This document shows positions 6,776 through 58,755 of a stretch of 64,000 nt of DNA, piece after piece. The notes below the pieces were generated by a model. It was not told the origin of the DNA. It made no database searches and was given only the letters and a program-made list of their open reading frames with translations. Position 1 is the stretch's first letter; each line of letters opens with the position of its first letter. A program made the position numbers and the translations under genes. This DNA comes from Escherichia phage Killian: the sequence record OQ446694.1. The stretch is one strand, 5' to 3'.

Positions 6776-6794
6776 CCAAATCCGTATCAGTTGA

Positions 6795-6936: not shown

Positions 6937-6948
6937 AGATTTATTCTA

Positions 6949-29971: not shown

Positions 29972-30006
29972 AACATTATACCACATCCTTGTGGCAAAGT
30001 AAACTA
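29972..30006 (-). promoter_or_regulatory. T4-type early promoter (-35 GTTTAC, -10 TATAAT)
   Basis: consensus hexamers plus GAGGAG Shine-Dalgarno before the MTRNEY start. Confidence 0.55.
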
Positions 30007-31032
30007 GTTCAGTGCATTTAGTGCATTGTTCAGTTTAGAACGTTGCTTTGTCAGATTTTGAACCCTTGACTGAGCTTGTTCTAACACCTTTTCAGCTTCT
30101 AGCACTTCATTGGTCGCTTTAACGAGTTCATCATCTACTGCCTTAAGAGACTTCTCAATCGCGTCAGCGTGCCATTTTTCTACAGGTTTAAAATTTGAAT
30201 TTTCAGTAGGAAGAAAACTCACTTTATTAAGTTTACATGCATCTATATTGCTTGAGCTATACATCCAAAATTTAGGATCGTTTGATGAGTAATTGGATAA
30301 ATTTAAATTTAAGTTATCTTGCACTTCCTGCTTTTTCTCTTGCGTGACTTCGTCCTTTCTCAAAAAATCGTATTTAAATGAAACGATCATATCAAGTTCA
30401 TACGTTGTTGTATGTTCCCAATTTCGCTCAAAACGAGGTAAAATCTTAGACTGAACAGCGGCAACAACATCCATATACTTAAATGCTTCTGTCAACTGTG
30501 ATTTAAGGCATTCGCAAATTGAAAGAGAATTTTTTGTATTAGGTTTAAAGCTAATTCGTGCAGTTCTATTATTTTCTTTTAATGGTCTTACTTCCATCTG
30601 AAGAGTATAACCATCAAATTTCAGGTTCTTTAAGTTAATGTCAGAACCTTTTAATCGACTAGCCGTCGACAAAATTTGCTTTAATTGTCTACGGAACAGA
30701 GCAATAAATCTCCATTCAATACGATAATGATTTGGATTGAAAAATCCAGATGATAAATCGACCTTACTTTGACCAACGCCTTGAACAAATAGAGGATTTT
30801 TATAATCAATAGTTTTACAGAAATCGGTGAGCTGCTCACGAGCCGTCATTTGTGTAATATACCCTGCTTTACTAAAATTACGCACCCATTCACTGCTATT
30901 CGTATACTTAAAGTGATGAATAACACGATTAACTTTATCAGGGTCTAAATTATTTTCACACAAAAATGTCATAACATCACGAGTATAACTGGCATTACGA
31001 ACCATATCTTCAATTTGAGAACGAGTTTTCAT
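30004..31032 (-). CDS. uncharacterised protein with C-terminal coiled coil (array member C)
   Basis: 342 aa. Confidence 0.5.
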   Translation of the reverse strand: MKTRSQIEDMVRNASYTRDVMTFLCENNLDPDKVNRVIHHFKYTNSSEWVRNFSKAGYITQMTAREQLTDFCKTIDYKNPLFVQGVGQSKVDLSSGFFNPNHYRIEWRFIALFRRQLKQILSTASRLKGSDINLKNLKFDGYTLQMEVRPLKENNRTARISFKPNTKNSLSICECLKSQLTEAFKYMDVVAAVQSKILPRFERNWEHTTTYELDMIVSFKYDFLRKDEVTQEKKQEVQDNLNLNLSNYSSNDPKFWMYSSSNIDACKLNKVSFLPTENSNFKPVEKWHADAIEKSLKAVDDELVKATNEVLEAEKVLEQAQSRVQNLTKQRSKLNNALNALN

Positions 31033-31040
31033 GGTGTTCC

Positions 31041-31967
31041 TTAAGATTTAAGTAAATCAACAATTTTAATTAACTTTTCACGCTCAGATTTAGCTTTACT
31101 ACTCAATCCAGATAGTCTGAAAATTTCATCATCATATTGTTGAATAGAAATATTCAGCTCTTCAATCTGTTTATTAAAATAATCAATTTGTTCAGAATGT
31201 TTTTCGTTACTACGAACTGGTACAGGTTTCGTAGGCAATTTAGTTGAACTGGATTCATCCGGGCGATAAATTAAAATACAACTTGAACCAATAGGGCATT
31301 TTGCACCAGATGAATATTCTAATGTTCCAGCTTCTTTTAAAACTTCAAAAGCTAAACAGAGATGATGCCCCATATTAACATAATCTGTAGAGTGAGCTCT
31401 GATGTAATAATCGTCTCCACGAATACTAAATTTAAAGCATTTAAGGTCTTCTGTATTATTGGTCTTAAAAATCATTTGTTTATCTAGACCTTTAGCTAAT
31501 CGAGCGCCCAATGCTAATAATCGGCGTTGATTTTCCCACAAATCCGCAATCATTTGATCGAATGATAATTTTGGCATCAGTCGACCATAAAGGTCATATC
31601 CTTTATTATAATTACGAAGGATTTCACTCGCGTTAATACGAGACAATGCTCCAATTTTATTAAGGGCTTTCATAATGCGATTAGATAAACTCATTCCAGA
31701 CCCATTTGTTCGCTGCAAATGTTTTTCTAATCCAAATCCAATATCAACTTTAAACTTATCTAAAATTTCTGCATGAACATCTCTGTCAATAACATTCAAA
31801 TCCAAAGTTGGGTTAAATCTATGAAAAAATTTATCTGGCTCTCCACGGCGAAATACAGTCCATTCATTCATCATTTTTTTATTAGCTAAAGATTTAATTA
31901 CTGCATTGACATTATTAATTACTACTGACATATTTTCCTCACTCAATTTCAATTTTACTAAATACAC
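31041..31967 (-). CDS. uncharacterised protein with C-terminal coiled coil (array member D)
   Basis: 308 aa. Confidence 0.5.
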   Translation of the reverse strand: MYLVKLKLSEENMSVVINNVNAVIKSLANKKMMNEWTVFRRGEPDKFFHRFNPTLDLNVIDRDVHAEILDKFKVDIGFGLEKHLQRTNGSGMSLSNRIMKALNKIGALSRINASEILRNYNKGYDLYGRLMPKLSFDQMIADLWENQRRLLALGARLAKGLDKQMIFKTNNTEDLKCFKFSIRGDDYYIRAHSTDYVNMGHHLCLAFEVLKEAGTLEYSSGAKCPIGSSCILIYRPDESSSTKLPTKPVPVRSNEKHSEQIDYFNKQIEELNISIQQYDDEIFRLSGLSSKAKSEREKLIKIVDLLKS

Positions 31968-32346
31968 AGAATATGATTGAACAGACTACATAAGCGCCAC
32001 ACACAGATTGAACTAATACCATCCCAAAGAACCAAACAATATTATCAAACAGTGTCTGTTTTACGTCGAAAGGACGTAAACTTACAGTAATATTATCACC
32101 TTTTTCTATTGAAGAATACATCTCTGGGGAAATATATTCACTAAATCTATAACCGTCTTTAAGTTCATATACGGCAATAAACGATAAACTAGACCCTTTT
32201 CCTTGTGTTCCTGTAATGGTATTAACTACAGTAACATCATAATCTTTATAATGCATATAATCATTAATAGCATAATAACCGTATGCAACTACTACACATA
32301 AACAACATATCAATAAATTCAATCTTTTAATTATCAACCGTTTCAT
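31939..32346 (-). CDS. membrane protein (two predicted TM helices)
   Basis: 135 aa. Confidence 0.45.
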   Translation of the reverse strand: MKRLIIKRLNLLICCLCVVVAYGYYAINDYMHYKDYDVTVVNTITGTQGKGSSLSFIAVYELKDGYRFSEYISPEMYSSIEKGDNITVSLRPFDVKQTLFDNIVWFFGMVLVQSVCGAYVVCSIIFCVFSKIEIE

Positions 32347-32401
32347 AATAATCTCAATTAAAAGGGCTTAGAACCATTATACCATCCTTGGTATAAAGCG
32401 G

Positions 32402-32929
32402 TTATGCGAGTACCGTCTTTAACCGTTCTTCAAACTTCCGAAGAGTATTTTGGCGTTCAGCTCTTTGCTTTTTGTAAGTTTCAATACGCTCTGAAATGAG
32501 AGTGTATCGTTCATTTACTGATTCTTTCATAAAATCAGGAATTTCACGAGAAGCTTTAATCTCATCAAATTTATCAATAACAGCTTGCTCTTCAGCAATT
32601 AAGTTATCATACATTAAAATATCTTTCTTGATGAACTCAATATCTTCTTGAGTTACACGAGATAATTTAGATGCTTTATCCTTTTTGTACTGTTCGTTAG
32701 TATCACGAGACCAGTGTAATGTACGATTTTTATTCGTATTTTTGTAAATTTCTACAATACCAATCTCATCAATAATAACGATCCAATTCCAGCGGGATTT
32801 GTAAATTTGTCCTCCATCAACTGTGATTTCACCTCCGATTGAGATGTCGTTAAAGAACTTGCTTTGTGCTTCAGATTTAAATTTACCATCATTGTAATTT
32901 ACCAGGTTGAAAATATCTTTAGCGTTCAT
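32402..32929 (-). CDS. hypothetical protein
   Basis: 175 aa; starts directly downstream of an early promoter cassette. Confidence 0.5.
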   Translation of the reverse strand: MNAKDIFNLVNYNDGKFKSEAQSKFFNDISIGGEITVDGGQIYKSRWNWIVIIDEIGIVEIYKNTNKNRTLHWSRDTNEQYKKDKASKLSRVTQEDIEFIKKDILMYDNLIAEEQAVIDKFDEIKASREIPDFMKESVNERYTLISERIETYKKQRAERQNTLRKFEERLKTVLA

Positions 32930-32949
32930 TTTCTGTTCCTCCGTAGTTG

Positions 32950-32988
32950 ATAGTTGTATAGTACCACAGAGGAACAGTCTTGTAAACC
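32950..32988 (-). promoter_or_regulatory. T4-type early promoter cassette
   Basis: same GTTTACA...GGTACTATAC architecture as at 6795 and 50042. Confidence 0.55.
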
Positions 32989-32989
32989 A

Positions 32990-33304
32990 CTAAAAGAAAC
33001 TTCTTTCACAATTTTTTCCACTGAACCATGCGCTCACTGCTTTCTTAGTCTCAGGAGCAGTGTTATCCATAAACCATTCAAAGGCAGCCTTTTTATGATT
33101 CTGGAGGGCTTCTCGGGCTTTAATCTGCTCACGGTCTATTAACACTAACATATGAGCCTTTCTTGTCACCATGGGCTTCTTATGATTTTTTGAATACTCC
33201 CAGTCATTTGTCCATCGCATTGTCGTTGCGAATTGAAATACAGCTTCTTTAATCTTAGTTTCGTAAATTTCACGAGCCTTTGAGTATAACATCACTACCT
33301 CCAT
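32990..33304 (-). CDS. hypothetical protein
   Basis: 104 aa ORF. Confidence 0.45.
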   Translation of the reverse strand: MEVVMLYSKAREIYETKIKEAVFQFATTMRWTNDWEYSKNHKKPMVTRKAHMLVLIDREQIKAREALQNHKKAAFEWFMDNTAPETKKAVSAWFSGKNCERSFF

Positions 33305-33393
33305 TCACCAGTTTAATTCTAGTCATCTTTTTAATGGCAGTCCATATAATCTATTTCTGAACTGCCTTTTTGTCATAGAAGTCCTCTTATGAA

Positions 33394-34380
33394 TTATTTC
33401 AGAAGAGTAACCTCAGCAATTTCTTCCCAACCGTTTTTGTCGGTCATAATAAAGTCAGCAAGATAAAGAGCAGTACGCAGTGAAACATTGCGTAAACGAT
33501 TAACATTAACTTTCATCCATGATAATGCTTTATAAGTTTCTTCATCAGAAAGACCGCGCTTTTGCATCATGTCAGTTGAAAGAATAACATCTTCAACCCT
33601 GACCATAATTTCTTCATTAGTATGAACACCCAAATCCAAATAAACTGAGCGGGACACTAATGCTTGTAAGTGTGGAGCAAGTTTAGTACCACGGTCTAAT
33701 TCGCGGTCAATGTCAACGTTTGTGATAAAAACAATCGTTCCTTTAAATTCAAACTCACGCTCAATGCCTTTTTCTTCTAAGTAAGAAGATGCAGTGCTCC
33801 AGCAGACTTTACGGGTTTCTCCGGTGTCCAGAGCGGCTTTTAGAAGATTAAGAATGTCCATATCAGAGAAAACATCCACATCATCAATCAAAAGGACAGA
33901 ATTCTCTTCACGATTATTCCAAAGCTGTTCATAAAGACCAATACCAGAGATTTTACCATTAATGCTTTTATATTCAATGTATCCAATATCATTTGCTTTA
34001 TTTAAAGCTTTATCTAAAGAATACGTTTTACCAATACCTGCTGCGCCAGAGATAATTAATGAACGAATATTTCCATTAATAATACCGTTCGTCATCATTC
34101 CCATAACATTAAATCTTTTATTAATGCGGGTTTTCATATCTTCATATGATTCTTTAACTTCTTCAACTTTTACACCATCATATGAAATATCTGATTTGTA
34201 AACCCAAACACCGCGACGTTTACCGTCAATTTCAACAAAAACTTTACCATCTCCTTGTGCATCTACCGGAGCATTATCTGGGAACCATTCGCCTAAGAGC
34301 TCAAAAGTTCCAGAGATTTCTTTACCGAAGTAGATACCCTTATTGATAGTTACAGTTTTCATTTTATTCTCCAATTTCAC
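33394..34380 (-). CDS. P-loop NTPase (AAA-like ATPase) with N-terminal extension
   Basis: 328 aa; Walker A GAAGIGKT and Walker B VLLIDDVD. Confidence 0.6.
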   Translation of the reverse strand: MKLENKMKTVTINKGIYFGKEISGTFELLGEWFPDNAPVDAQGDGKVFVEIDGKRRGVWVYKSDISYDGVKVEEVKESYEDMKTRINKRFNVMGMMTNGIINGNIRSLIISGAAGIGKTYSLDKALNKANDIGYIEYKSINGKISGIGLYEQLWNNREENSVLLIDDVDVFSDMDILNLLKAALDTGETRKVCWSTASSYLEEKGIEREFEFKGTIVFITNVDIDRELDRGTKLAPHLQALVSRSVYLDLGVHTNEEIMVRVEDVILSTDMMQKRGLSDEETYKALSWMKVNVNRLRNVSLRTALYLADFIMTDKNGWEEIAEVTLLK

Positions 34381-34393
34381 ATTTGTTTTGATA

Positions 34394-34430
34394 GGGTAAT
34401 AGTATCACACTACTACCCTACTGTAAACAA
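34394..34430 (-). promoter_or_regulatory. T4-type early promoter upstream of the ATPase gene
   Basis: GTTTACAG...TACTATTACCCTATCAA family, also seen at 54660, 54958, 55288. Confidence 0.5.
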
Positions 34431-34431
34431 T

Positions 34432-34695
34432 TTATTTTAATGTTCGCCAAATTTTTACTGCTTCGCGACGAGATACTTCTACAGCTCCAAGTTCTACGGC
34501 TTTTTGGCGGCGGCGCGCGTGTAAGTCATAATGTTTAATGCGTTTATCTTGAAACCAAGAGCGTTTCATTCCTATTGCTTCTGCCATTTCATGAAGCTCT
34601 TCAATATCTCCATCAGTGAACATATGACAATTTTTAGTTGGATGACCGCGAAGTTTCCACCCATGATTCATTAAAACATCTACGTAAACTGTCAT
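34432..34695 (-). CDS. hypothetical small protein
   Basis: 87 aa ORF. Confidence 0.45.
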   Translation of the reverse strand: MTVYVDVLMNHGWKLRGHPTKNCHMFTDGDIEELHEMAEAIGMKRSWFQDKRIKHYDLHARRRQKAVELGAVEVSRREAVKIWRTLK

Positions 34696-34841
34696 TGATT
34701 CTGCTCCAAATATGTTTCTATAATTTTCTGAGCGAGATAAACTGCGTTATCTTCAGTTGCATCTTCTAAGAAATTTTCAAAACAAGCTGAAATCTCTTCT
34801 GTGTCAATCAACTTTTTTACTTCAATTAACGTAGTTTTCAT
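34692..34841 (-). CDS. hypothetical small acidic protein
   Basis: track ORF 34692..34886 trimmed: the MVLYNYQL prefix is the translated promoter -10 region; MKTTLIEV start has a Shine-Dalgarno. Confidence 0.4.
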   Translation of the reverse strand: MKTTLIEVKKLIDTEEISACFENFLEDATEDNAVYLAQKIIETYLEQNQ

Positions 34842-34869
34842 TTTATTCCCCCAAATCCACATCAGTTGA

Positions 34870-34908
34870 TAGTTGTATAGTACCATAAAGCTTTATGCTT
34901 GTAAACAA
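34870..34908 (-). promoter_or_regulatory. T4-type early promoter cassette
   Basis: GTTTACA / TACTATAC elements. Confidence 0.55.
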
Positions 34909-34935
34909 CTTTGTGACGTCATTTTAAACAAAAAA

Positions 34936-34953
34936 AGGGAGCCCGAAGGCTCC
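34936..34953 (-). terminator. UUCG-type hairpin downstream of the nucleotidyltransferase-like gene
   Basis: GGGAGCC-CGAA-GGCTCCC. Confidence 0.45.
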
Positions 34954-34956
34954 CTA

Positions 34957-35970
34957 TCATTTATAATAACTTCGGTGGTTTTCAAGATATACCTCTTCAA
35001 CGAACTTGTCCCAGAACTTCATGTCTACCTTATCAGGCATACCGTTCTTAGCTGCCTGGATGGCTAGGACTTCAACCAAATCAACAGTATCTTCAAGAAG
35101 TTCTTGAACTTCTTTAAATGGTAATTCACCGGCTTTAATCAGCTTAATGATAGAGGCTTCGCGCAATGGGAACGCCAAATCACCTGTTTGGTAGATTTCC
35201 ATCAATTGATACCCTGCGCGATAAGCATGACTCAGAGCTTTCCAGTCAATACCTTCATTAGCTTCAGCCTTACGAGCACGTTCACCATATTCCGCATCGA
35301 GCTTATTCAGAGATTGCTTGAGCTCGATTAAAGACAAGGTGGTTTGGTACTTACGTCCAAGAACAGTATAGAACGTTTGAGGACCTGTTTTCTCGTGGTT
35401 ATGGAATACCCATTCACAGAACTCGTTTTCAGGAAGCCGATGTTTAATATCTACAATTTTAGTACGACGTTGTCCTTGTGTTCCATCTTCTCGGTAATCA
35501 ACCCACTGGTCAGGAATTTGATTAACTACTTTCAATACATCACGTAATGCGGCCAAACGAGAACCCTTAACACCATATTTAGAAGCTTGCTTGCGGACAT
35601 ATCCTAAATAGGATTTCATGTTAGTCGTATAAAACCGTGAACGATTGTCTTGAATAAACTTCCATACATCAGGCAAATCAGATTTAACTACTAGTTCAGG
35701 TGGAGTGTGGAGCATATCCAATGCTACAGTTTCACCATCTGCTGCTAATTTAAAGAAATATTTAAGACTGTATAGTTCATGGTCAATATCATCTTTAGTG
35801 TTTTTAGATGATGTGTTGTTAGTGTTTTTACTCATATGCTCTTTAACATTTCCGATAAGAATATCGCGAGCAGGAGGAACAAAGATTTCTTTAAAATCTA
35901 CATCAGATTCTGGAGTAGAAGTTCCATAAAGATGACTACCAAAATAGCTTTTCATTACTGTTTTCATCAT
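34957..35970 (-). CDS. polymerase-beta-superfamily nucleotidyltransferase-like protein
   Basis: 337 aa; N-terminal GSHLYGTSTPESDVDF fits the G[GS]x(9-13)DhDh nucleotidyltransferase signature. Confidence 0.5.
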   Translation of the reverse strand: MMKTVMKSYFGSHLYGTSTPESDVDFKEIFVPPARDILIGNVKEHMSKNTNNTSSKNTKDDIDHELYSLKYFFKLAADGETVALDMLHTPPELVVKSDLPDVWKFIQDNRSRFYTTNMKSYLGYVRKQASKYGVKGSRLAALRDVLKVVNQIPDQWVDYREDGTQGQRRTKIVDIKHRLPENEFCEWVFHNHEKTGPQTFYTVLGRKYQTTLSLIELKQSLNKLDAEYGERARKAEANEGIDWKALSHAYRAGYQLMEIYQTGDLAFPLREASIIKLIKAGELPFKEVQELLEDTVDLVEVLAIQAAKNGMPDKVDMKFWDKFVEEVYLENHRSYYK

Positions 35971-36440
35971 TCAGCCTTATATTCAATAACAGGACATACT
36001 TTAGCTTTACGAGCTTTTAAAAATTCGACGATAATAGATTTCTTGGGTTGAATAGGAGGTAAACCTTTATACGCCCTATCAATATTTTCTACATGTAAAG
36101 CATAATCCTTTTTCCATTTATAATCTTTATATTTTTCATGCAATTGTGCAGGAATAACAAATGAACCGATAATAAGTAAAACAAGCAAAATGGCAAGTAT
36201 AAATGCTGCTGGAATAAGAGTCCATAAACTACCAAAAATAAGCCATTTCTGTATGATTTCTGCACAGATGATAGTTAGACCTGCGAGTATAGTACATCCG
36301 AAAAAAGAAACGAAAAATGTAGGAATAACAATAGACCAAAAATACGCGCATAGTGTCTTAGGCCGTTTCCATTCATCATTAAACATTTTGAATAATTTAT
36401 AGTGCCAAGAGCTTTCATTAATAATCATAATTATAATCAT
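35967..36440 (-). CDS. membrane protein (about four TM helices)
   Basis: 157 aa hydrophobic ORF. Confidence 0.5.
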   Translation of the reverse strand: MIIIMIINESSWHYKLFKMFNDEWKRPKTLCAYFWSIVIPTFFVSFFGCTILAGLTIICAEIIQKWLIFGSLWTLIPAAFILAILLVLLIIGSFVIPAQLHEKYKDYKWKKDYALHVENIDRAYKGLPPIQPKKSIIVEFLKARKAKVCPVIEYKAE

Positions 36441-36958
36441 CCTTTCATTGAAGGTGTAACAGTTGTTAAATACTTAATCATAGCTTCAGCTTCTGATTTT
36501 GATAATGAAATTTCTCCATTGTTTTGACGAATAGAAATAAAATCTGGATGACGGTCACCACCAGCTTTCAAAACACACATATAAGTATCAGTTTCATCTT
36601 CAATATTTGAAATGATTGAAGCAGTTCCACATGAATGCGGTTTTTGATAAATCAATACGGCTTTTCTTCCACCGTTTGACTGTTCATAAACTTTTAACAC
36701 ATCAAACAAATCACTTCTTTTATCAATAGCTAAGATGTTGTTTTCATCTTCAATGTTAAATCCTTCGGATACTTCATAAAGTGTCACCCATAAATCACCT
36801 ATATCGATAGTAGCATTTTCCTTTCCATGACTTTCAAGAGTATGACAAATTTTCTTGATTTCGTCATAACTCATTTTAATAATATCATCTCCTTGAATAA
36901 GGAAGATGTCATTTTTAAATTCAACACGAATTAAACCACTTTCACTTGAAATAAACAT
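36437..36958 (-). CDS. hypothetical protein, tandem paralog 1
   Basis: 173 aa; C-terminus ISLSKSEAEAMIKYLTTVTPSM resembles the neighbouring ORF. Confidence 0.45.
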   Translation of the reverse strand: MFISSESGLIRVEFKNDIFLIQGDDIIKMSYDEIKKICHTLESHGKENATIDIGDLWVTLYEVSEGFNIEDENNILAIDKRSDLFDVLKVYEQSNGGRKAVLIYQKPHSCGTASIISNIEDETDTYMCVLKAGGDRHPDFISIRQNNGEISLSKSEAEAMIKYLTTVTPSMKG

Positions 36959-36964
36959 ATTTCC

Positions 36965-37522
36965 TCACTTTGAAATCATAGTTGGAATGACAGAATCAAG
37001 ATAAGTCTTTAGCGCAATAGCTTCGTCTTTGGTAAATGTGACAATATGTGATCGAAAATCGTCAATTTGACGAATAGTTAAGACATCTCCCTCTTCATAA
37101 CATTTTGATACATTTAAAACAGTTTCATAATTTTGATTACAAGCGTTAGTAATAATAGCATTGCAATTTTTAAACCATTTTAAACTATGTTTTCTTTCAT
37201 TAGAATAATAAAAATATTTAATCTTATCTATAAAACTATCCCAATGGATAACTGATAAACACATTGACTCACTTTTAATATTAAATCCTGGGCATAAAGA
37301 ATAAAAATGAATTTTATGCTCATCATTAATGCTTACAATTTTATCAGTGTAAGGTTTTTCAATTTGGGTTAAATGAATAATTTCGCTAGGCGTAAAATAT
37401 AGCATATCGTCTTCTTGCGTCAAACGATACATATTATTTACTTTTTCTATAGCCAATTCACCAAAAAGTGAACTAACTTCTAGTACTAATCGTTTCATAT
37501 TGATTCTCTTCGACTCACTCAC
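36965..37522 (-). CDS. hypothetical protein, tandem paralog 2
   Basis: 185 aa; C-terminus VTFTKDEAIALKTYLDSVIPTM; start appears to be GTG preceded by AAGGAG. Confidence 0.45.
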   Translation of the reverse strand: MSESKRINMKRLVLEVSSLFGELAIEKVNNMYRLTQEDDMLYFTPSEIIHLTQIEKPYTDKIVSINDEHKIHFYSLCPGFNIKSESMCLSVIHWDSFIDKIKYFYYSNERKHSLKWFKNCNAIITNACNQNYETVLNVSKCYEEGDVLTIRQIDDFRSHIVTFTKDEAIALKTYLDSVIPTMISK

Positions 37523-37654
37523 AATTACATACTCCTTTGAATAATATCAATAATGTTGTTTACCAGATTATAAGTAAACATTGGGTAATTATATTGAATC
37601 ATCACATACACAACAAACAAAACTTTCATTCTCTTCTCCTTGGCAGTTGACAAG

Positions 37655-37690
37655 ATTACTATACCATAACCTTGCCAACTTGTAAACCAT
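37655..37690 (-). promoter_or_regulatory. T4-type early promoter
   Basis: -35 TTTACA and -10 TATAGT at 17 nt spacing. Confidence 0.45.
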
Positions 37691-37852
37691 TAAATGACGT
37701 TTTCAATAAAATTCTGAAGCTTTGTGTGAGCATCAACCATGATTTTCATTTCTTCCTTTGCAAAAGCTGTACCTCTTTCACGAGAAGAATACTCATAGTC
37801 AGAAACTGCATTAGCGTATTCTTCAATTAGCTTCATTAAAAACATCTGCTTT

Positions 37853-38047
37853 TCAGTTTTCATTATTCCACCTAATCATTTCAAGATATTGAACTAACTT
37901 AGCTTTGGATTTATCCAAATCCTTTTTAGCTGCTTCTATACCATCGTATGAATATCCTTCACAATGCTCAACTGCCAATTGGTATGAATCTATTTCAATA
38001 TCACGTGCTAATTTAATGATTTTTTCAAACTGTTCACGTGTTAGCAT
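37853..38047 (-). CDS. hypothetical small protein
   Basis: 64 aa ORF. Confidence 0.4.
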   Translation of the reverse strand: MLTREQFEKIIKLARDIEIDSYQLAVEHCEGYSYDGIEAAKKDLDKSKAKLVQYLEMIRWNNEN

Positions 38048-38049
38048 AC

Positions 38050-38289
38050 TTAAACTCTCGTATTATGATCGATAATTTCATCAAGAAACATATCTAAAGC
38101 TTCTACAGCATTATCAACTTTAGCTTCAAGTTCTTCAGCGCCTTTATTTGCAATGCCTGCCGAAAACCAAGCAAAGTCACTAAGTTCCTCATCTGCTTTG
38201 CGAATTAAAGCTACCAATTCTTTAATTTTATCTGCTTGTTCGATACTAATCATTATTCCACCACATATGAAAGAGAGAATATTGCACAC
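38050..38289 (-). CDS. hypothetical small protein
   Basis: 79 aa ORF. Confidence 0.4.
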
Positions 38290-38441
38290 GCCATATGAGT
38301 TGCAGCTTCATCACACATATCATAACGTTTCTTAAGAAGTTCTACAAGTTCTTCACTTGTAACTTCATCCATGTCGACGAAAAAATCACCATTAATGATG
38401 ACGTAAATATTTCCTTCTTGATTAAGTGCTTCAATTTTCAT
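38253..38441 (-). CDS. hypothetical small acidic protein
   Basis: track ORF trimmed to MKIEAL start downstream of an early promoter. Confidence 0.4.
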
Positions 38442-38464
38442 GATGTTCTCCTCTTTATCCGATG

Positions 38465-38501
38465 GTTGTATAGTATCACAACTCAAATGGAAAGTAAACC
38501 G
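38465..38501 (-). promoter_or_regulatory. T4-type early promoter
   Basis: GTTTAC / TACTATAC elements. Confidence 0.5.
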
Positions 38502-38513
38502 GTAAAATGAAAA

Positions 38514-38532
38514 AAGTCTCCCGAAGGAGACT
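38514..38532 (-). terminator. UUCG-type hairpin
   Basis: AGTCTCC-CGAA-GGAGACT. Confidence 0.45.
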
Positions 38533-38536
38533 AATG

Positions 38537-38923
38537 TTATTCGAGGGAAAGAAGATATTTGCTCTGGTAAAACATTCCAGTAATATCATCTATCGTGCTT
38601 TGAATGGCTGGAGGCATTTCTTTATAAATGCTGTTAGATTGGTCTAGTATGCGATCAATCATTTTAATTGTGTCGGTAGGAAGTTTACTAGCATCTGGAA
38701 TTGAAGGTGTGTATTTTCTACCAGAATACCCCAAATATTGCTCGCCAAATTTATCAATCAAATCTGGCAACTCAGAGAAAATAAAATCGTATGCCTTGTG
38801 TCTAACATAACTTTTAGTTTCAAAATGCGCAGAATGAAAATAAGCTTGTGCAGCCATTAATAAACCTAAGTATTCATCTGCCTTTGAAGGTTTTCCACTT
38901 TGTGAAAAGTCGCTGAATTTCAT
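38537..38923 (-). CDS. hypothetical protein
   Basis: 128 aa ORF preceded by a UUCG-type hairpin. Confidence 0.45.
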
Positions 38924-39213
38924 TCAGTCTCCAATTTAATGTTCATAATTCTAGCGTATGATTGTGCCATCTCCGCGCCTCGTTCTATACATTCAAAATC
39001 GGAAGAGCACGGGTCATTTTTATAGGTCGTTCGCATAAAACTATAGAACTGTTCAGATGATTCTACGCTTTTATTTTCAAAAAGCATATAAACATGTCTA
39101 ATACCAGATTCCATAAATTTATCAAAATGAGGATCGACATTCGCTTCAATCGGTGGAGATAAAGCAAATGCTAATCCTAGCATGGCAAATAATGCCGTTG
39201 CTTTTAAGGCCAT
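38920..39213 (-). CDS. secreted small protein
   Basis: 97 aa; N-terminal signal peptide. Confidence 0.45.
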   Translation of the reverse strand: MALKATALFAMLGLAFALSPPIEANVDPHFDKFMESGIRHVYMLFENKSVESSEQFYSFMRTTYKNDPCSSDFECIERGAEMAQSYARIMNIKLETE

Positions 39214-39225
39214 AAAGGCCTCCTA

Positions 39226-39438
39226 TCATTTTTGTCCTGTATTTACTTTATGCCGATGCACGGCCTTAACTTTATCAAGGTATTTTTCAAAATTTCGCAA
39301 TCTAGTATAGTCTGCCGGAGATTGGTTGAGTGATACTTCTCGACGCAAAGCTGAAATGATATTTCCAACTTCCCTACGAATTTCATCTAATTGAAGAACA
39401 GTAAGATTGCGAAGTTGCTTTTCAGTTAATTGTAGCAT
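39226..39438 (-). CDS. hypothetical small protein
   Basis: 70 aa ORF. Confidence 0.4.
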
Positions 39439-39480
39439 ATATACCCCTTTAGTTAGATAAACCTATTTATAACTTTTGCA

Positions 39481-40062
39481 CTAACCGAGCTTTTTAGTTA
39501 ATTCATTCCAATGTTTTCTGCACAAAGAAACATAAATTTCATCACCAATACAGATTTGATTACCTTCTTTAACTGGTGTTCCATCTTCCATTAATCGAGC
39601 CGTCATAATCGCTTTTTTACCGCAATGACAAACTGCCTTTAGTTCAATAAGTTTATCTGCAATCGCCAAAAGTTCTTTAGAACCTTCAAATAATTTTCCG
39701 GCGAAATCAGTCCTTAGACCATAAGCCATAACAGGAACATTATATGTATCAACAATTCGACTTAATTGATGCACCTGTCCAGTTTTTAAAAACTGGGCTT
39801 CATCTACAAATACACAATGAATATCTTTTTGTGCTTCAGCCCATTTATAGAACTCAAAAATATCCATATCATCCGTAATAATATTCGCTTCCTGCTTAAT
39901 TCCAATACGAGAAACGACTTCACAGACAGAATCGCGAGTATCAATAGCAGGCTTAAGAACTAATACACCCATTCCACGTTCTTTATAATTATGCGCAGCA
40001 GTCAAAAGAGAAGCAGATTTTCCAGCATTCATTGCTGCATAAGTAAAAATTAAACTCGCCAT
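39481..40062 (-). CDS. tk: thymidine kinase
   Basis: 193 aa; P-loop AMNAGKS; C-terminal Zn cysteines; T4 length. Confidence 0.9.
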   Translation of the reverse strand: MASLIFTYAAMNAGKSASLLTAAHNYKERGMGVLVLKPAIDTRDSVCEVVSRIGIKQEANIITDDMDIFEFYKWAEAQKDIHCVFVDEAQFLKTGQVHQLSRIVDTYNVPVMAYGLRTDFAGKLFEGSKELLAIADKLIELKAVCHCGKKAIMTARLMEDGTPVKEGNQICIGDEIYVSLCRKHWNELTKKLG

Positions 40063-50925: not shown

Positions 50926-51235
50926 AAGCCTTGCGGCAACCTTGTCGGGGTTCCACCTGCTAAGGCAAGTGTTTGTACGAAACGCCGGGATTTGAACCCG
51001 GTTATTAAGCAGTTGACGCTACTCAATATTTTTAAAAGGCCATATCTCGACCATATCCGAACGTTCCGTCAAAAACGCTACTCGGCTTACGGCAAAGATA
51101 TTTCCTCGAATCGATAATTCGGTGCGCCGTTTCTGCTGTGATGTAAGAGGGCATCAACAAATCATAAAGATTTATTAACGCAATTCCTTACCCAGGGAAC
51201 ATCAGTCCGACGACTTACCGGTAGCGACCCGGCTT
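50926..51235 (-). ncRNA. putative stable small RNA(s), analogous to T4 RNA species 1/2
   Basis: ORF-free region between tRNA-Arg and a GAAA-tetraloop terminator; contains tRNA-like T-arm CCGGGTTCAAATCCCGG. Confidence 0.35.
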
Positions 51236-51241
51236 CTTGTC

Positions 51242-51318
<77 letters not shown>

Positions 51319-51321
51319 TAA

Positions 51322-51987
51322 TTAAAATTTCATTTTTCGACCTTTAAACCATCCTTCTGGAATTGGGTCAGTTTTCTTAATACGTTTAGAAACTTTTTCA
51401 TCTAATGAATGAATCCACATCATACCAAATTGGGAATTCTTTTCGCCCTGTTGATGTTTATTTCTGGCGTGAGATTCTTTCATTTTATTAATAGTTTCAG
51501 GAGTATGGGTCTTGCCCAAGAAAGATTTAGTATTTAAAAATTTCTCTCTATACTTAGGATTATCCCAAAGCTGTTTAAACCTTTCTGAACCCATTTTACG
51601 ATATTTTTCTTTAAGGTCTGGGTCGTTCTCAAATCTGGTTTTAAAAGCGGCAGCTCCTTTTAAGGAAGCTTCTTTCTTTTTATCCAAATATTCTTTAGTG
51701 TTTAAATGGTCCCAACCACCTTCACCACCTAATTTCAAATTATAAACATCAGGGCGCTTTAAAAACTCTTCAGTCACAATATTCTTTTCTGACTCAAACA
51801 TAGAGGTTTTATCGTCAAAGAACTCTAATATTTCTTTAGAAAAATTTTCTATACCATACTTATCTTGGGCTCTTTTTAATAATTTACCAGAACCCATATA
51901 TCCATCATCTAAATTTTCGGTAGAATGAGCGCCTATATAGATTTTATTATTAATTTTATTTGTTATTTTATAAATGTAATGGAACAT
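51322..51987 (-). CDS. segB: GIY-YIG homing endonuclease (SegB-like) inside the tRNA island
   Basis: 221 aa; YIYKITN...KIYIGA GIY-YIG motif; lies between tRNA subclusters as T4 segB does. Confidence 0.65.
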   Translation of the reverse strand: MFHYIYKITNKINNKIYIGAHSTENLDDGYMGSGKLLKRAQDKYGIENFSKEILEFFDDKTSMFESEKNIVTEEFLKRPDVYNLKLGGEGGWDHLNTKEYLDKKKEASLKGAAAFKTRFENDPDLKEKYRKMGSERFKQLWDNPKYREKFLNTKSFLGKTHTPETINKMKESHARNKHQQGEKNSQFGMMWIHSLDEKVSKRIKKTDPIPEGWFKGRKMKF

Positions 51988-52028
51988 AAATATCTCCTAT
52001 TTCTAAGAGTATTTATGTTCCCAAAATA

Positions 52029-52100
52029 TGGCCCTGGGTGGAATTGAACCACCATCTGGCGATTATGAGTCGCTTGCTTGAACCTTCCAGCTACAGGGCC
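52029..52100 (-). tRNA. tRNA with CAU anticodon (Ile-lysidine type or Met)
   Basis: hand-folded; acceptor GGCCCTG/CAGGGCC; anticodon loop CTCATAA. Confidence 0.6.
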
Positions 52101-52106
52101 TTGATA

Positions 52107-52179
52107 TGCTGATTGACGGAATCGAACCGCCGACATCCTCATTACAAGTGAGGTGCTCTACCTACTGAGCTAAATCAGC
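52107..52179 (-). tRNA. tRNA-Thr (anticodon UGU)
   Basis: hand-folded; anticodon loop CTTGTAA; T-arm GGCGGTTCGATTCCGTC. Confidence 0.7.
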
Positions 52180-52186
52180 GAAATTA

Positions 52187-52273
52187 CGGAGGCGATAGGA
52201 TTTGAACCTATGAGTCGCCGGAGCGACTGCCGGTTTTCAAGACCGGTGCATTAAACCACTCTGCCACGCCTCC
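52187..52273 (-). tRNA. tRNA-Ser (anticodon UGA)
   Basis: hand-folded; long variable arm; anticodon loop CTTGAAA. Confidence 0.7.
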
Positions 52274-52275
52274 AG

Positions 52276-52349
52276 TCTCCGCGGCAGGATTTGAACCTGC
52301 GACATTCTGCTCCCAAAGCAGACGCTCTACCAAACTGAGCTACACGGAG
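52276..52349 (-). tRNA. tRNA-Pro (anticodon UGG)
   Basis: hand-folded; anticodon loop TTTGGGA; T-arm GCAGGTTCAAATCCTGC. Confidence 0.7.
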
Positions 52350-52361
52350 TAAATTAAATTT

Positions 52362-52433
<72 letters not shown>

Positions 52434-52439
52434 AAACTT

Positions 52440-52526
52440 TGGTACGAGAAGTGGGACTCGAACCCACAAGGAAATCATTCCGCAGCATTTTAAGTGCTGT
52501 GCCTTTACCAATTTGACCATTCTCGC
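52440..52526 (-). tRNA. tRNA-Leu (anticodon UAA)
   Basis: hand-folded; long variable arm; anticodon loop CTTAAAA; CCA encoded. Confidence 0.7.
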
Positions 52527-52532
52527 TCTATA

Positions 52533-53165
52533 TTATTTATTACGTGAAAAAGATTGTTCTATCAATTCTGGACACTTTCGTTCTATCCATTTTCTAGCTT
52601 TTTGTGGGCTTATACCTATTATTTTAGCAGCTTTACTAACCCATCCAAATTTAGAATAATCGATTTTAACTAATTCTTCGTAAATTTCATCAGTTAAAAT
52701 CTTTTCATTAATATTTACCAGTAAATGATATAATTTATTATCATTAGCAATTTTAATGAATCTTTTATAGTTTCCGCCTTTACTTAAACCTAATGAAGTA
52801 ATTGCAGATGATATAGTAGCCGAATTTAATAGTGCGTTTAAAATTTCTTCATCACTAACATTATAACGCTTTTTATTATTTTTAATATTTTTACCAGCAA
52901 AAGTATCAGTTTGCGAATGGCAATTTGGACATAATAATCTTAAATTTGATTTAAGATGATTTTTGTTATTTCCATCAATATGGTCTAATTGCAGAACAAT
53001 ATGCTTATTTTGCCATTTTGAAATTTTACAAATTGCACACTCATATGGAAAAATATTTTCTTTTATTATTTTGTCTTTCAGCTTTCCTGTACTAAAATTT
53101 GGATGTTTTCCTTCAAAAATTTCAGCTAATTTAGTATCCATAATATAATTCCCAATTATTAACAA
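52533..53165 (-). CDS. HNH homing endonuclease
   Basis: 210 aa; CxxC...HIDGNNKNH...CPNCH HNH/Zn motif; abuts tRNA-Leu. Confidence 0.65.
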   Translation of the reverse strand: MLIIGNYIMDTKLAEIFEGKHPNFSTGKLKDKIIKENIFPYECAICKISKWQNKHIVLQLDHIDGNNKNHLKSNLRLLCPNCHSQTDTFAGKNIKNNKKRYNVSDEEILNALLNSATISSAITSLGLSKGGNYKRFIKIANDNKLYHLLVNINEKILTDEIYEELVKIDYSKFGWVSKAAKIIGISPQKARKWIERKCPELIEQSFSRNK

Positions 53166-53240
53166 AGGCTCTCAAGCAAGAACCCTTGATGATAGAGGGT
53201 ATTAATCAGTGCGATATGAGTTAATAATAACAAATAATTC

Positions 53241-53756
53241 TTAAAGCAAATTAAACATTTTAACGGTCGGCAAAACAATTTCTTCTTCTATATAAGAGTA
53301 TTTAACACTCTCAACTACACGCAAAAAATCATAATCATAATACTCAGAAGCATTACCTAAAATATTAATAAGTCCTTCAAGCACCTTATTACTATTCACA
53401 AAGAATAAGTCAAATACACGTTCTTCATCTTCTTCAGATTTATTACCAAGATCAACTTCTATGCGAAAGACCTTTTTAATGAATTCTGGATAAAGCTGGT
53501 CTGAGAACAGTCCTTCAACCAAGTATTCATAAATAAAAAGAGATTGCTCGCTGAACAAACCATTACCGCAATAGCGCTCAATTTTAGTACTAGAATATCT
53601 GCTTTTAAATTTCTTTAAAAGATACTGAAATTGTAAGATTTCATGCTCTTCTACGCCAAACAGTGTTTTAGTTTTATAGTTGTCACCATCATTTTCCCAG
53701 GTAGTGACATCAATTACGTAGCCCTGCGGAATTGTAGTACCTAAACAAATATTCAT
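53241..53756 (-). CDS. hypothetical protein
   Basis: 171 aa ORF. Confidence 0.45.
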   Translation of the reverse strand: MNICLGTTIPQGYVIDVTTWENDGDNYKTKTLFGVEEHEILQFQYLLKKFKSRYSSTKIERYCGNGLFSEQSLFIYEYLVEGLFSDQLYPEFIKKVFRIEVDLGNKSEEDEERVFDLFFVNSNKVLEGLINILGNASEYYDYDFLRVVESVKYSYIEEEIVLPTVKMFNLL

Positions 53757-53759
53757 TTT

Positions 53760-54050
53760 TCACCACGCTGCGTTAATGTAAGTATATTTAATACATTCAA
53801 GACCCAAAGGATTCTTGAAAATATCATATTCAAGAGGACCTTTTTCTGTTTCAATAAAGAAATCAAAATTTACTGTATTAAATTTACGTTCTTCCTTCAC
53901 TAATTTAACTTGAGAAGATGAACGGTCAATGTAAACCCTTTCAACTTCAAAACATGTTAAAATGCCATAATCATCAATCAAAGCTTTAGCCGCGTCTTGA
54001 TCATATTTATATCCATTTTCAATGGATGATACTTTCGCATAAAGAATCAT
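53760..54050 (-). CDS. hypothetical protein
   Basis: 96 aa ORF. Confidence 0.45.
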   Translation of the reverse strand: MILYAKVSSIENGYKYDQDAAKALIDDYGILTCFEVERVYIDRSSSQVKLVKEERKFNTVNFDFFIETEKGPLEYDIFKNPLGLECIKYTYINAAW

Positions 54051-54052
54051 TA

Positions 54053-54451
54053 TCAGCCTTCATCAACAATAGTGTGAGTATTGGCATTTACGATTTGCCA
54101 CCAGTCAAATCGATTAGAACCCATCGGTTTGTTTTCATTTTCTTTGATAATGTCACGGAGTTCATCTTCAGAGAATGCTTTAGCGATTAAATCGGTATAC
54201 CCACCACGGGGATAATAATTATCACCTGCAAACAAAAGGAAATTTACCTTCCCGGAAGCAACATATGCTTCCTTAGGATACTTGTTTCCTGCGTGGTCAA
54301 CCACTTCAATATAACGGTAAGGAATATCGGTTCTTTCAACCCATTGCCATGCCGCCGCAGGGGAATCGAAAGCATCTACACCTAAACGATTATCTTCATC
54401 TTTAGACGGATTATTTTCGTAATCCGCATATACATAATATTCAACGTTCAT
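54053..54451 (-). CDS. hypothetical protein
   Basis: 132 aa ORF. Confidence 0.45.
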   Translation of the reverse strand: MNVEYYVYADYENNPSKDEDNRLGVDAFDSPAAAWQWVERTDIPYRYIEVVDHAGNKYPKEAYVASGKVNFLLFAGDNYYPRGGYTDLIAKAFSEDELRDIIKENENKPMGSNRFDWWQIVNANTHTIVDEG

Positions 54452-54636
54452 TATTCACCTTTAGAAATTTTATCCATAACGATAGCAATTAAACCAATTA
54501 AAAATGCTACTACAAGTGAAAAAACATTTTCTGCCGTAGTCAATAATCCGCATATAAATCCAACAAACATTGAAAAACTGAAAGCGGAAGCAGAAATTGC
54601 AATAGCAACATTTCGAATTAATTCACAACGTTTCAT
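54451..54636 (-). CDS. small membrane protein
   Basis: track ORF 54451..54777 trimmed to MKRCEL start downstream of a promoter. Confidence 0.4.
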   Translation of the reverse strand: MKRCELIRNVAIAISASAFSFSMFVGFICGLLTTAENVFSLVVAFLIGLIAIVMDKISKGE

Positions 54637-54659
54637 TTTATTCTCCTCAGTAGTTGATA

Positions 54660-54697
54660 GGGTAATAGTATCACTACCCCATCTAAAAGTAAACTTA
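54660..54697 (-). promoter_or_regulatory. T4-type early promoter (IP locus family)
   Basis: TTGATAGGGTAATAGTATCAC...GTAAAC cassette. Confidence 0.5.
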
Positions 54698-54928
54698 TTT
54701 TTTACGAAAAATTGATTTATTTTCTGCTGCCCATTTTTCAATAACTGCAACAGGACCAGTAACAACAATTTTATCACCGTAATCTTCTGCGGCGAGTTGA
54801 CCGAAATTATCTAATGCATCACGAAGAACTCCATGAGGCATTTCACCCATTTTATCTTTCTTGCCGGTGTAAATAAACTCAGCTTTTACATCAGAAGATT
54901 CAGCGATAAACTCTTTGAAAGTTTTCAT
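54695..54928 (-). CDS. internal protein-like (ipI-locus family) with capsid-targeting N-terminus
   Basis: MKTFKEFIAES start (second Met of track ORF 54695..54940). Confidence 0.55.
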   Translation of the reverse strand: MKTFKEFIAESSDVKAEFIYTGKKDKMGEMPHGVLRDALDNFGQLAAEDYGDKIVVTGPVAVIEKWAAENKSIFRKK

Positions 54929-54957
54929 TTTGATTTCCATTTGGTTTTGTTTTGATA

Positions 54958-54994
54958 GGGTAATAGTATCACAGCTAAAACCCTATGTAAACAA
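54958..54994 (-). promoter_or_regulatory. T4-type early promoter (IP locus family)
   Basis: cassette repeated before each IP-like gene. Confidence 0.55.
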
Positions 54995-55004
54995 CTTTGT
55001 GAAA

Positions 55005-55262
55005 TTATTTTAAATCTTCTAATCGTTTCTTCATCTTAGAACCATTCTTAGCGATTTCTCCTGCATCAGAGCATAATGCTAAAAGCGCTTTAACTTTAGT
55101 TTGGTCTCCTTTAAAAGATGAAGGATCGACTGCAGCAGCAAGTTCTTTAATACGAGAGAAAAGACGCTCGGCTTCAGCTAAAGCCATTCCAAGCTTTACT
55201 TCCATACCGTGGGAAGATTCAGTGATAGTAGTTTTTGTAGCAAACTCTTTGAAAGTTTTCAT
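55005..55262 (-). CDS. internal protein-like (ipI-locus family) with capsid-targeting N-terminus
   Basis: 85 aa; MKTFKEFATK N-terminus; own early promoter. Confidence 0.55.
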   Translation of the reverse strand: MKTFKEFATKTTITESSHGMEVKLGMALAEAERLFSRIKELAAAVDPSSFKGDQTKVKALLALCSDAGEIAKNGSKMKKRLEDLK

Positions 55263-55287
55263 TTTATTTTCCTAATTAATTTTGATG

Positions 55288-55324
55288 AGGTAATAGTATC
55301 ACTACTAAAACCCCGTGTAAATAA
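55288..55324 (-). promoter_or_regulatory. T4-type early promoter (IP locus family)
   Basis: cassette repeated before each IP-like gene. Confidence 0.55.
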
Positions 55325-55334
55325 CTTTGTGAAA

Positions 55335-56019
<685 letters not shown>

Positions 56020-56020
<1 letters not shown>

Positions 56021-56745
56021 TATAGTACCTTTAGTGTATTTTTAATTTTAGAAAAAAGTTCTTCAAGAGAACCATCGTTTGTAATTACTAAATCGCCATC
56101 ACGAATTGGCAATCCAGCTTCTGTAATATGAGTATCATTGGATTTTTGACCAGGACGAACTACATGAATTACTGTAGCACCCATCGCCCTAGCCGCATCC
56201 ATTTCATGGTCTTGACGAGTATCAGGAACGATATAATAATCATAACCTGAGTTAAATTTATCAAGATAATCTAAAGCAAATAATTTTACCCAATACATGC
56301 GGTCGAAGTTATTAACAATCAAATCCGTACCTAGGGCTTGCATCAGACGACGGACTGACCATTGATCTTCAATATTATTTATAACGTCAGCAATCTTGTT
56401 AAATGCTACGAAAGTAACCGATTCTTTTCCTTCGTCATCAAAAACAAACACGCCTTTAATTGGGCTTTTACTATTAAGATAGCAAAATGCTTGTTCCATA
56501 ATCGTAATTACTTCTAATTTAGTCAGATTTAAATTAGTCTCGCGATCATAGTCAATTCCTTCAAACTCTTTACGAGTTAAACAAGGATAGTCAGTGTTTG
56601 CTGCAAATACGCCCCATGCATAAGCCAATGCATCTTTAATAGGACCAGCAAGTTGATATTTAACTGCAGAATAATTATTCATGATAAAATCTGCAGTAGT
56701 ATCTTTTCCACTACGCTTTACACCACTTAAAAAGATTAGTTTCAT
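56020..56745 (-). CDS. 1: deoxynucleoside monophosphate kinase gp1
   Basis: 241 aa; P-loop GVKRSGKDT; T4 length. Confidence 0.9.
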
Positions 56746-56794
56746 ATGTTTCTCCTCAAATTTAGTTAAGATTATAACATATGAAACTGAAGCA

Positions 56795-57325: not shown

Positions 57326-57431
57326 ATATTCCTCATAATGCTTTATAAATGTTGGTGGTATAATGGGTTTAAGTCCCTTCCATTCAATTCCAATTAGAAC
57401 AAACAATAGAAAAGAATGGAAGATAATAGAA

Positions 57432-58708: not shown

Positions 58709-58719
58709 TGGATTCTCCT

Positions 58720-58727
58720 TATAAATA
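58720..58727 (+). promoter_or_regulatory. late promoter TATAAATA for gene 53
   Basis: exact late consensus about 30 nt upstream of the gene 53 ATG. Confidence 0.7.
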
Positions 58728-58734
58728 GATAATA

Positions 58735-58742
58735 TATTTATA
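58735..58742 (-). promoter_or_regulatory. late promoter TATAAATA for gene 4 (divergent from gene 53)
   Basis: plus strand TATTTATA; about 30 nt upstream of the gene 4 start. Confidence 0.65.
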
Positions 58743-58755
58743 AACAGGAGGGCCC

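Follow-up and report, generated by a model that had tools for sequence, protein, structure and literature searches.

Do the early genes at positions 33394-36440 of Escherichia phage Killian form one cooperating module, and what is the task of the nucleotidyltransferase among them? We analysed a stretch of 64,000 nucleotides (nt) of this phage (record OQ446694.1), here called the window, in which every gene of the block lies on the minus strand. An initial annotation had grouped a P-loop ATPase of 328 amino acids (aa), two small open reading frames (ORFs), a nucleotidyltransferase (NTase) of 337 aa and a membrane protein as a single module for host takeover or counter-defence. All ORFs, motifs, promoter-like sites and the UUCG hairpin named there are present on the minus strand. 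However, the block is best explained as a patchwork of early genes, each acquired independently, within the nrdC-tk hyperplastic region and not as one functional module. We favour, with a probability of roughly 0.55, the reading that combines this mosaic with an NTase, NrdC.11, which is a member of the RlaP family and restores RNA 3' ends for tRNA repair.

NrdC.11 as a member of the RlaP family

The region is 99% identical to Escherichia phages EcNP1 and Nami in its nucleotide sequence and is matched by 775 phage records, 415 of which cover at least 80% of its length. By this similarity the window is assigned to the genus Tequatrovirus as a genome segment. Since each block gene has hundreds to thousands of homologs, none of them is a chance ORF. 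Due to collinearity with the T4 map, the 337-aa NTase (34957..35970, minus strand) is identified as NrdC.11 (T4 NP_049709, ∼88% aa identity) and the 328-aa P-loop NTPase as NrdC.10 (T4 NP_049708, 99.7% aa identity). Both large genes are long-known T4 genes and not new; they were flagged in 2006 as COG3541 nucleotidyltransferase and AAA ATPase, respectively (PMC1524935). T4 NrdC.11 has meanwhile been named RlaP and placed in a separate cluster, number 5, of a sequence similarity network (SSN), its function not being known (bioRxiv 10.64898/2025.12.29.696909), so that the statement that no function can be assigned no longer holds for the NTase. Many deposited phage records label nrdC.10 and nrdC.11 'thioredoxin'. 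Neither protein is thioredoxin-like, and the label is an error, seemingly spread from the gene names.

NrdC.11 carries the motif GSHLYGTSTPESDVDF at residues 11-26 and scores 50.1 bits against the Pfam model RlaP (PF10127; cut-off 23, E = 4e-13), with a match that spans model positions 23-142 of 249 only. An exhaustive profile search returned 3,791 clusters, among them 1,126 with E <= 1e-30. Conservation was evaluated in 74 representatives of 34-52% identity, 73 of which match RlaP in Pfam. G11 is invariant in this set, and conservation reaches at least 90% for S12, D23, D25, D61, D63 and D85. In a profile-profile alignment with canonical RlaP paralogs (hhalign, 93.4% probability, E = 2.4e-7, residues 2-131), D23, D25 and D63 align to the invariant D49, D51 and D88 of canonical RlaP. 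The initial annotation had placed the protein in the pol-beta superfamily, which the conserved carboxylates confirm, and had made this depend on the acidic triad of homologs, which is conserved across the 74 representatives. D85 was considered as third catalytic carboxylate and dropped, since the alignment favours D63 and D85 matches a conserved Glu of canonical RlaP.

In common with PfRlaP and PaRlaP from the Pseudomonas rtcB operon, NrdC.11 has the pol-beta core (GS...DxD and a third Asp) and a Pfam score above cut-off. Its first ∼130 residues align profile to profile, and its relatives are embedded in RtcB and Pnkp-Hen1 operons. In contrast to these enzymes, it belongs to a 'long' subtype of ∼320-340 aa with 30 residues inserted into the NTase domain, and the phage gene has no adjoining ligase. 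The crystal structure of PfRlaP comprises a C-terminal helical domain, the terminal helix of which is packed on the NTase domain (bioRxiv 10.64898/2025.12.29.696909). In the AlphaFold2 model of NrdC.11 the C-terminal half is helical (pLDDT about 80-90), the NTase domain being unmodelled. Searches of the PDB brought up no RlaP chain. Taken from these profile matches, NrdC.11 is classified as an RNA-repair-type nucleotidyltransferase of the RlaP family, not as a cGAS/DncV-like enzyme.

A putative role of NrdC.11 in tRNA repair

Two Pseudomonas RlaPs add 1-2 nucleoside monophosphates (NMPs) at the RNA 3'-OH, work best with Mn2+, favour the 5' half when given a mimic of cleaved tRNA, and raise the aminoacylation of repaired tRNA that is short of one nucleotide. 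They use all four nucleoside triphosphates (NTPs) and label RNAs of rRNA, tRNA and fragment size, but are inactive on DNA and protein (Carruthers, Fatma and Huang, bioRxiv 10.64898/2025.12.29.696909). It was predicted before that RlaPs put back nucleotides cut out by RloC-like nucleases prior to ligation, and an equivalent mirroring of RlaP and repair-gene distribution was described in jumbo phages (Iyer et al. 2021; PMC7824862). By analogy, the most likely function of NrdC.11 is the addition of nucleotides to an RNA 3'-OH before ligation in tRNA repair. Like the assayed Pseudomonas enzymes, NrdC.11 would add one or two NMPs onto the 3'-OH of broken RNA without a template. This addition would restore nucleotides that 'excising' anticodon nucleases such as RloC trim from tRNA anticodon loops, and phage Pnkp and RNA ligase 1 (Rnl1) could then reseal a functional tRNA. 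We infer the activity, the tRNA substrate and the cooperation with Pnkp and Rnl1 from these relatives.

The repair of tRNA cut by a host suicide nuclease through Pnkp and Rnl1 of T4 is the textbook case of viral tRNA repair. The purpose proposed for NrdC.11, reversing the damage by an anticodon nuclease, is the same as that of Pnkp/PseT and Rnl1 against PrrC, and the RlaP product, a 3'-OH, is the end that a 5'-phosphate ligase such as Rnl1 needs. Two differences have to be kept in mind: the membership of NrdC.11 in this pathway is a proposal only, and a restoring step matters only against nucleases that remove nucleotides, such as RloC. The counter-defence role that the initial annotation had considered for the NTase is plausible.

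Full-length NrdC.11-type proteins occur in bacterial and archaeal genomes with 34-53% identity. In 80 bacterial loci the Pfam-confirmed neighbours include RtcB (7 loci), Pnkp (6), Hen1 (5) and Ro60-vWA (4), the Pnkp neighbours comprising kinase, phosphatase and ligase domains; the full-length homologs beside these genes have 34-42% identity. Tandem pairs of RlaP paralogs are frequent in bacterial RNA-repair operons, among them Pnkp-Hen1 and RtcB operons: in 19 of the 80 loci the long NrdC.11-type gene is immediately followed by a canonical RlaP gene of ∼260 aa, often with a 4-bp overlap (e.g. 6004-6975 and 6979-7746 in locus L196, 6001-6984 and 6981-7802 in L224, 2956-4086 and 4083-4895 in L234). 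It may be that one type cannot stand in for the other. The two paralogs might divide labour, for example by nucleotide or substrate specificity, comparable to the split CC-adding and A-adding enzymes. A canonical RlaP was found neither elsewhere in the window nor in 160 viral loci, and phages thus carry the long type only.

We also counted phage-database records by genus (Escherichia, Klebsiella, Shigella, Aeromonas, Acinetobacter and Enterobacter, in this order). The counts for NrdC.11 (608, 286, 83, 75, 69 and 56) closely track those for T4 Rnl1 (636, 287, 83, 77, 69 and 56) and Pnkp (635, 286, 83, 77, 70 and 56). NrdC.10 departs from this pattern (557, 149, 76, 48, 72 and 36), for example in Klebsiella.

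Several observations weigh against the favoured reading. The match of the genus counts is an aggregate one and not per genome, and it could simply reflect a near-universal presence in Straboviridae. No RNA ligase or Pnkp gene lies within 6 kb of nrdC.11 in the phage loci; pseT and rnlA of T4 are ∼80 kb away from nrdC.11 and for this reason fall beyond the window. A viable genome-reduced T4 has lost the nrdC.11-mobD.3 segment (PMC9825161), so that any role of NrdC.11 has to be conditional. The assayed RlaPs are Pseudomonas enzymes from an SSN cluster other than that of NrdC.11. Finally, the C-terminal ∼200 residues of NrdC.11 are outside the Pfam and hhalign coverage, and due to this distinct part substrate and product could differ from those of canonical RlaP.

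A more specific idea is that NrdC.11, as a distinct 'long' RlaP subtype, is the missing third enzyme of the T4 tRNA-repair pathway, acting before Pnkp and Rnl1 seal the break. We regard this as tentative, with the odds rather against it. If NrdC.11 does restore excised nucleotides, the classic T4 pathway gains a third step, and the survival of T4-like phages against nucleases like RloC, which were believed to defeat simple resealing, would be explained.

The nearest alternative keeps the RNA chemistry but changes its target: NrdC.11 might tail or repair RNA 3' ends other than those of broken anticodon loops, for example by mending tRNA 3'-CCA ends or by tagging transcripts of host or phage so that they are degraded or stabilised in the course of takeover. 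The broad choice of RNA sizes and NTPs of the assayed RlaPs would allow this, as would a different RNA specificity conferred by the divergent C-terminal domain, and the window carries 7 phage tRNA genes. However, T4 tRNA maturation depends on the CCA-adding enzyme of the host, and the distribution in phages follows Rnl1 and Pnkp. Because the NrdC.11 subfamily has enzymes of RNA sealing and healing as its neighbours in bacteria (RtcB, Pnkp-Hen1, Ro), we favour break repair and consider other RNA ends an unlikely target, though one to be taken seriously.

Organisation of the block

The comparison with T4 already divides the block. Positions 30001-34374 (nrdC.5 to nrdC.10) correspond to T4 50970-55332 with 95.7% identity, 34833-35971 (nrdC.11) to T4 55312-56449 with 83.8%, and 36940-40000 (mobD.1 onward) to T4 57258-60282 with 93.9%. 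The order and strand of nrdC.10 and nrdC.11 and the early promoter sequence are shared. In contrast, T4 lacks the two small genes between them, orf49 and a DUF4031 gene, which belong to a 458-bp insertion at 34375..34832 (minus strand; orf49 body, DUF4031 and a second early promoter) without T4 counterpart. At 35972-36939 T4 mobD (56450-57257) is replaced by the membrane protein gene and a second y05I paralog. Variable fillers of this kind, missing from T4, are the membrane protein and both small ORFs. The nrdC.11 allele of the window is itself mosaic, with 83.8% nt identity to T4 versus 94-96% for its flanks, and rare: a protein at least 99% identical is found in 6 phage records only, compared to 482 for NrdC.10.

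The regulatory signals predict three transcription units. The first would lead from two y05I/MobD.1-like paralogs (173 and 185 aa, 36437..37522, minus strand, Pfam T4_y05I_N/C) through the membrane protein gene (35967..36440, minus strand, 157 aa, phrog_944) to nrdC.11, all joined through ATGA stop/start overlaps. The paralogs stand at the head of the nrdC.11 unit, beyond the coordinates that the initial annotation had given to the block. Directly 3' of the nrdC.11 stop codon, this unit is closed by a predicted intrinsic terminator (34936..34955, minus strand) with an 8-bp GC-rich stem, a UUCG loop and a U-run. Its hairpin, AGGGAGCC-UUCG-GGCUCCCU read from 34955 to 34936, has a folding energy of -17.5 kcal/mol (z = -4.3), and none of 200 shuffles folds as well. 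The second predicted unit starts ∼30 nt past the terminator at an early-promoter-like site (34877..34905, minus strand; TTTACA-17-TACTAT, extended TG), the counterpart of the T4 nrdC.10 promoter, and would comprise orf49 and DUF4031. A second site of the same make (34399..34427, minus strand), located in the 69-nt gap in front of nrdC.10, would drive nrdC.10 and onward genes as third unit. The two sites imply transcription starts near 34394 and 34870. The promoters and the hairpin at 34936 thus exist where the initial annotation had seen them, but they lie inside the block and divide it instead of bracketing it.

Linkage was scored in the 6-kb neighbourhood of 80 viral NrdC.10 loci (30-78% identity) and 80 NrdC.11 loci. 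A NrdC.11 homolog is present in only three NrdC.10 loci, the three closest ones, and absent from the other 77. Conversely, NrdC.10 is near NrdC.11 in most loci with at least 51% identity and in 0 of the 35 loci with 50% or less, and in two large contigs the genes are separated by 35 kb and by 150 kb. The adjacency of NrdC.10 and NrdC.11 is limited to close T4 relatives, and none of the 80 bacterial RlaP loci has a homolog of any other block gene.

Cooperation of the ATPase, the small proteins, the NTase and the membrane protein in one host-takeover or counter-defence module is therefore weighed against a divided locus. The genes are adjacent and co-oriented in the window, most loci of Tevenvirinae and of T4-like Acinetobacter phages have NrdC.10 next to NrdC.11, and the membrane protein, homologs of which lie upstream in many relatives, is coupled to nrdC.11 translation. 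On the other hand, a terminator and two promoters split the genes, T4 lacks the middle cassette and has a homing endonuclease at the position of the membrane protein, and every distant locus has lost the linkage, whichever of the two genes one starts from. In Klebsiella phages, roughly every second record with NrdC.11 is without NrdC.10 (149 versus 286). With three predicted transcription units, a part of the block inserted relative to T4 and an ATPase and NTase unlinked beyond close T4 relatives, we consider a single module very improbable. The 'module' is an artefact that arose in annotation from genes lying side by side, and genome annotators should not take the block for an operon-like unit of defence or counter-defence.

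Alternative activities of the nucleotidyltransferase

Instead of RNA, NrdC.11 might nucleotidylylate a protein or a small molecule, as is known from MntA-type antitoxins and aminoglycoside nucleotidyltransferases, for example to neutralise a HEPN RNase toxin of the host. The matches that support this trace back to a model of low confidence and to helical bundles of a generic kind. The NCBIfam model MntA gives 15.9 bits compared to a cut-off of 60, no HEPN toxin gene is seen beside nrdC.11 in the ORF layout or by Pfam, and E. coli proteins were not labelled by RlaPs (bioRxiv 10.64898/2025.12.29.696909), which together make such an activity very improbable. MntA-type NTases and the CD-NTases (cGAS/DncV) share only the superfamily-wide GS...DxD signature with NrdC.11 and differ from it in C-terminal domain and gene context. 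We give next to no credit to the view that NrdC.11 makes or destroys a signalling nucleotide in the manner of cGAS, DncV and other CD-NTases, for instance to subvert CBASS or Thoeris: the generic pol-beta motif is common to CD-NTases, but no CD-NTase or CBASS model matches in Pfam (E <= 0.1) or PADLOC (E <= 0.01), the specific family match is RlaP, the bacterial relatives are found in RNA-repair operons and not beside CBASS effectors, and only RNA was labelled by the assayed RlaPs (bioRxiv 10.64898/2025.12.29.696909).

The relation to cGAS/DncV-type or minimal NTases that the initial annotation had drawn finds no match in Pfam, PADLOC or NCBIfam, and the RlaP family takes its place. For all five block proteins PADLOC and NCBIfam gave no significant match. 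PDB searches with single sequences and profiles returned nothing significant for NrdC.10, NrdC.11 and the DUF4031 protein.

NrdC.10, a widespread phage AAA+ ATPase

The nrdC.10 ortholog was called mechanically as a GTG ORF up to 34380, giving 328 aa. Translation almost certainly begins with the ATG at 34362, which is preceded by GGAG and annotated in phage P8, so that the gene spans 33394..34362 (minus strand, 322 aa). In the numbering of the 328-aa ORF, GAAGIGKT lies at residues 112-119 and VLLIDDVD at 162-169. The protein combines a beta domain at its N terminus (1-62) with a complete AAA+ module of Walker A and B, sensor 1, arginine finger, sensor 2 and an alpha-helical lid, which substantiates the earlier description as P-loop ATPase. 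Both Walker motifs, sensor 1 (N215), the SRS arginine (R238) and the sensor 2 arginines show no variation among 29 homologs down to 55% identity, and the same holds for R184, W188, T190 and S192 of a hairpin insert before sensor 1. Pfam AAA models score NrdC.10 below their cut-offs. Its full core and lid resemble known AAA+ ATPases (MoxR-type NorQ/CbbQ, MCM, NtrC-type, DnaA/RFC/ORC), from which it differs by its private N-terminal beta domain and by the lack of a vWA or other partner conserved beside it. A MoxR-vWA or Ro-type link of NrdC.10 to RNA repair was considered and rejected, since no AAA+ gene recurs beside bacterial RlaPs (80 loci).

The NrdC.10 family comprises 1,311 phage records, including jumbo phages, and extends to non-T4 phages; its BFVD matches are unannotated phage AAA+ proteins only. 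PMC2993671 does not list NrdC.10 as a T4 core or quasicore gene. Its same-strand neighbours in distant T4-like contigs are UvsW (46 loci), UvsY (29), UvsX (26) and gp32 (17), and in Vibrio phage D481 it has the genes for ribonucleotide reductase on one side and one for topoisomerase II on the other. NrdC.10 is a separate, widespread phage ATPase, the neighbours of which elsewhere point weakly to DNA replication or recombination and not to RNA repair. This part of our reading also has its counter-evidence: most of the neighbourhoods stem from a single clade of T4-like contigs of environmental origin, and the synteny with UvsW and UvsY may be inherited rather than selected. NrdC.10 is present in >1,300 phage records and, by its place between UvsY and UvsW in distant T4-like phages, is a candidate for an overlooked replication or recombination factor.

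As to the arrangement in distant T4-like environmental phages (loci L007-L082, around position 6000), the NrdC.10-type ATPase is flanked there by UvsY and the UvsW helicase, with UvsX and gp32 close by.

The inserted cassette and the small genes

The boundary of the insertion can be traced to the exact junction by an alignment of the upstream regions (window 34824-34918 and 34345-34440). In the window, the T4 nrdC.10 promoter, ribosome-binding site (RBS) and first three codons (MKT, ATGAAAACT) precede orf49, while a near-copy of them precedes nrdC.10. A repeat of ∼21 bp (RBS and ATGAAAACT) therefore stands on both sides of the inserted segment 34375-34832. Because these copies occur before both orf49 and nrdC.10, the cassette was inserted by recombination within the promoter/RBS repeat. 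The cassette of orf49, DUF4031 and promoter is accordingly placed at the nrdC.10 start codon. PeSL promoter-terminator cassettes behave likewise in hyperplastic regions of T4-like phages (PMC2839356, PMC4122927). The window resembles them in its stem-loop terminator followed by an early promoter (34955-34877), a likeness in layout, and in the near-identical promoter/RBS repeats on both sides of an inserted gene cassette; it differs in that the recombination junction reaches into the first three codons. The near-identical promoter/RBS copies compared were three, one of them being the T4 nrdC.10 promoter.

Within the cassette, orf49 (34692..34841, minus strand, phrog_6888) is an acidic ORF of 49 aa that is absent from T4. 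The mechanical ORF of 64 aa (34692-34886) is probably too long, the real start being the ATG at 34841 as in the phage P8 annotation. Its stop overlaps the DUF4031 start (ATGA). The DUF4031 protein (34432..34695, minus strand, 87 aa), likewise absent from T4, scores 77.7 bits against Pfam PF13223 (cut-off 25.6). Its homologs are all stand-alone proteins of 66-128 aa, and no domain fusion was found among 92 of them. D6, H24, Q49, H55, Y56, D57 and G70 are invariant in 37 homologs down to 41% identity. Due to the invariant polar set (D6, H24, Q49, H55-Y56-D57) a small enzyme is suggested rather than a structural protein. Three diverged genomic contexts of DUF4031 are arrays of unannotated phage or prophage genes.

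The membrane protein had been described with four helices. It is a membrane protein, but this number is not established, as its one unbroken hydrophobic stretch of ∼72 residues (29-100) fits 2-4 helices. Translation may perhaps start at 36428, giving 153 aa. The ORF overlaps the nrdC.11 start (ATGA), a sign of translational coupling, and occupies the position of mobD in T4. The majority of Tevenvirinae loci have a homolog with 25-49% identity upstream of nrdC.11. Among the block neighbours, the membrane protein alone may have a connection to nrdC.11. Pfam names the y05I-type domains of the paralogs upstream of it 'putative transcription factor'; T4 has one copy together with the homing endonuclease mobD.

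The tRNA genes of the window are clustered at 51242-52526 on the minus strand and comprise Arg-tct, 'Met'-cat, Thr, Ser, Pro, Gly and Leu. T4 has eight tRNA genes, Gln among them. A third copy of the early promoter (TTTACA-17-TACTAT, TG) is located at 32958-32986, upstream of the nrdC.8 ortholog, and shows how repetitive the regulatory cassettes are in this region.

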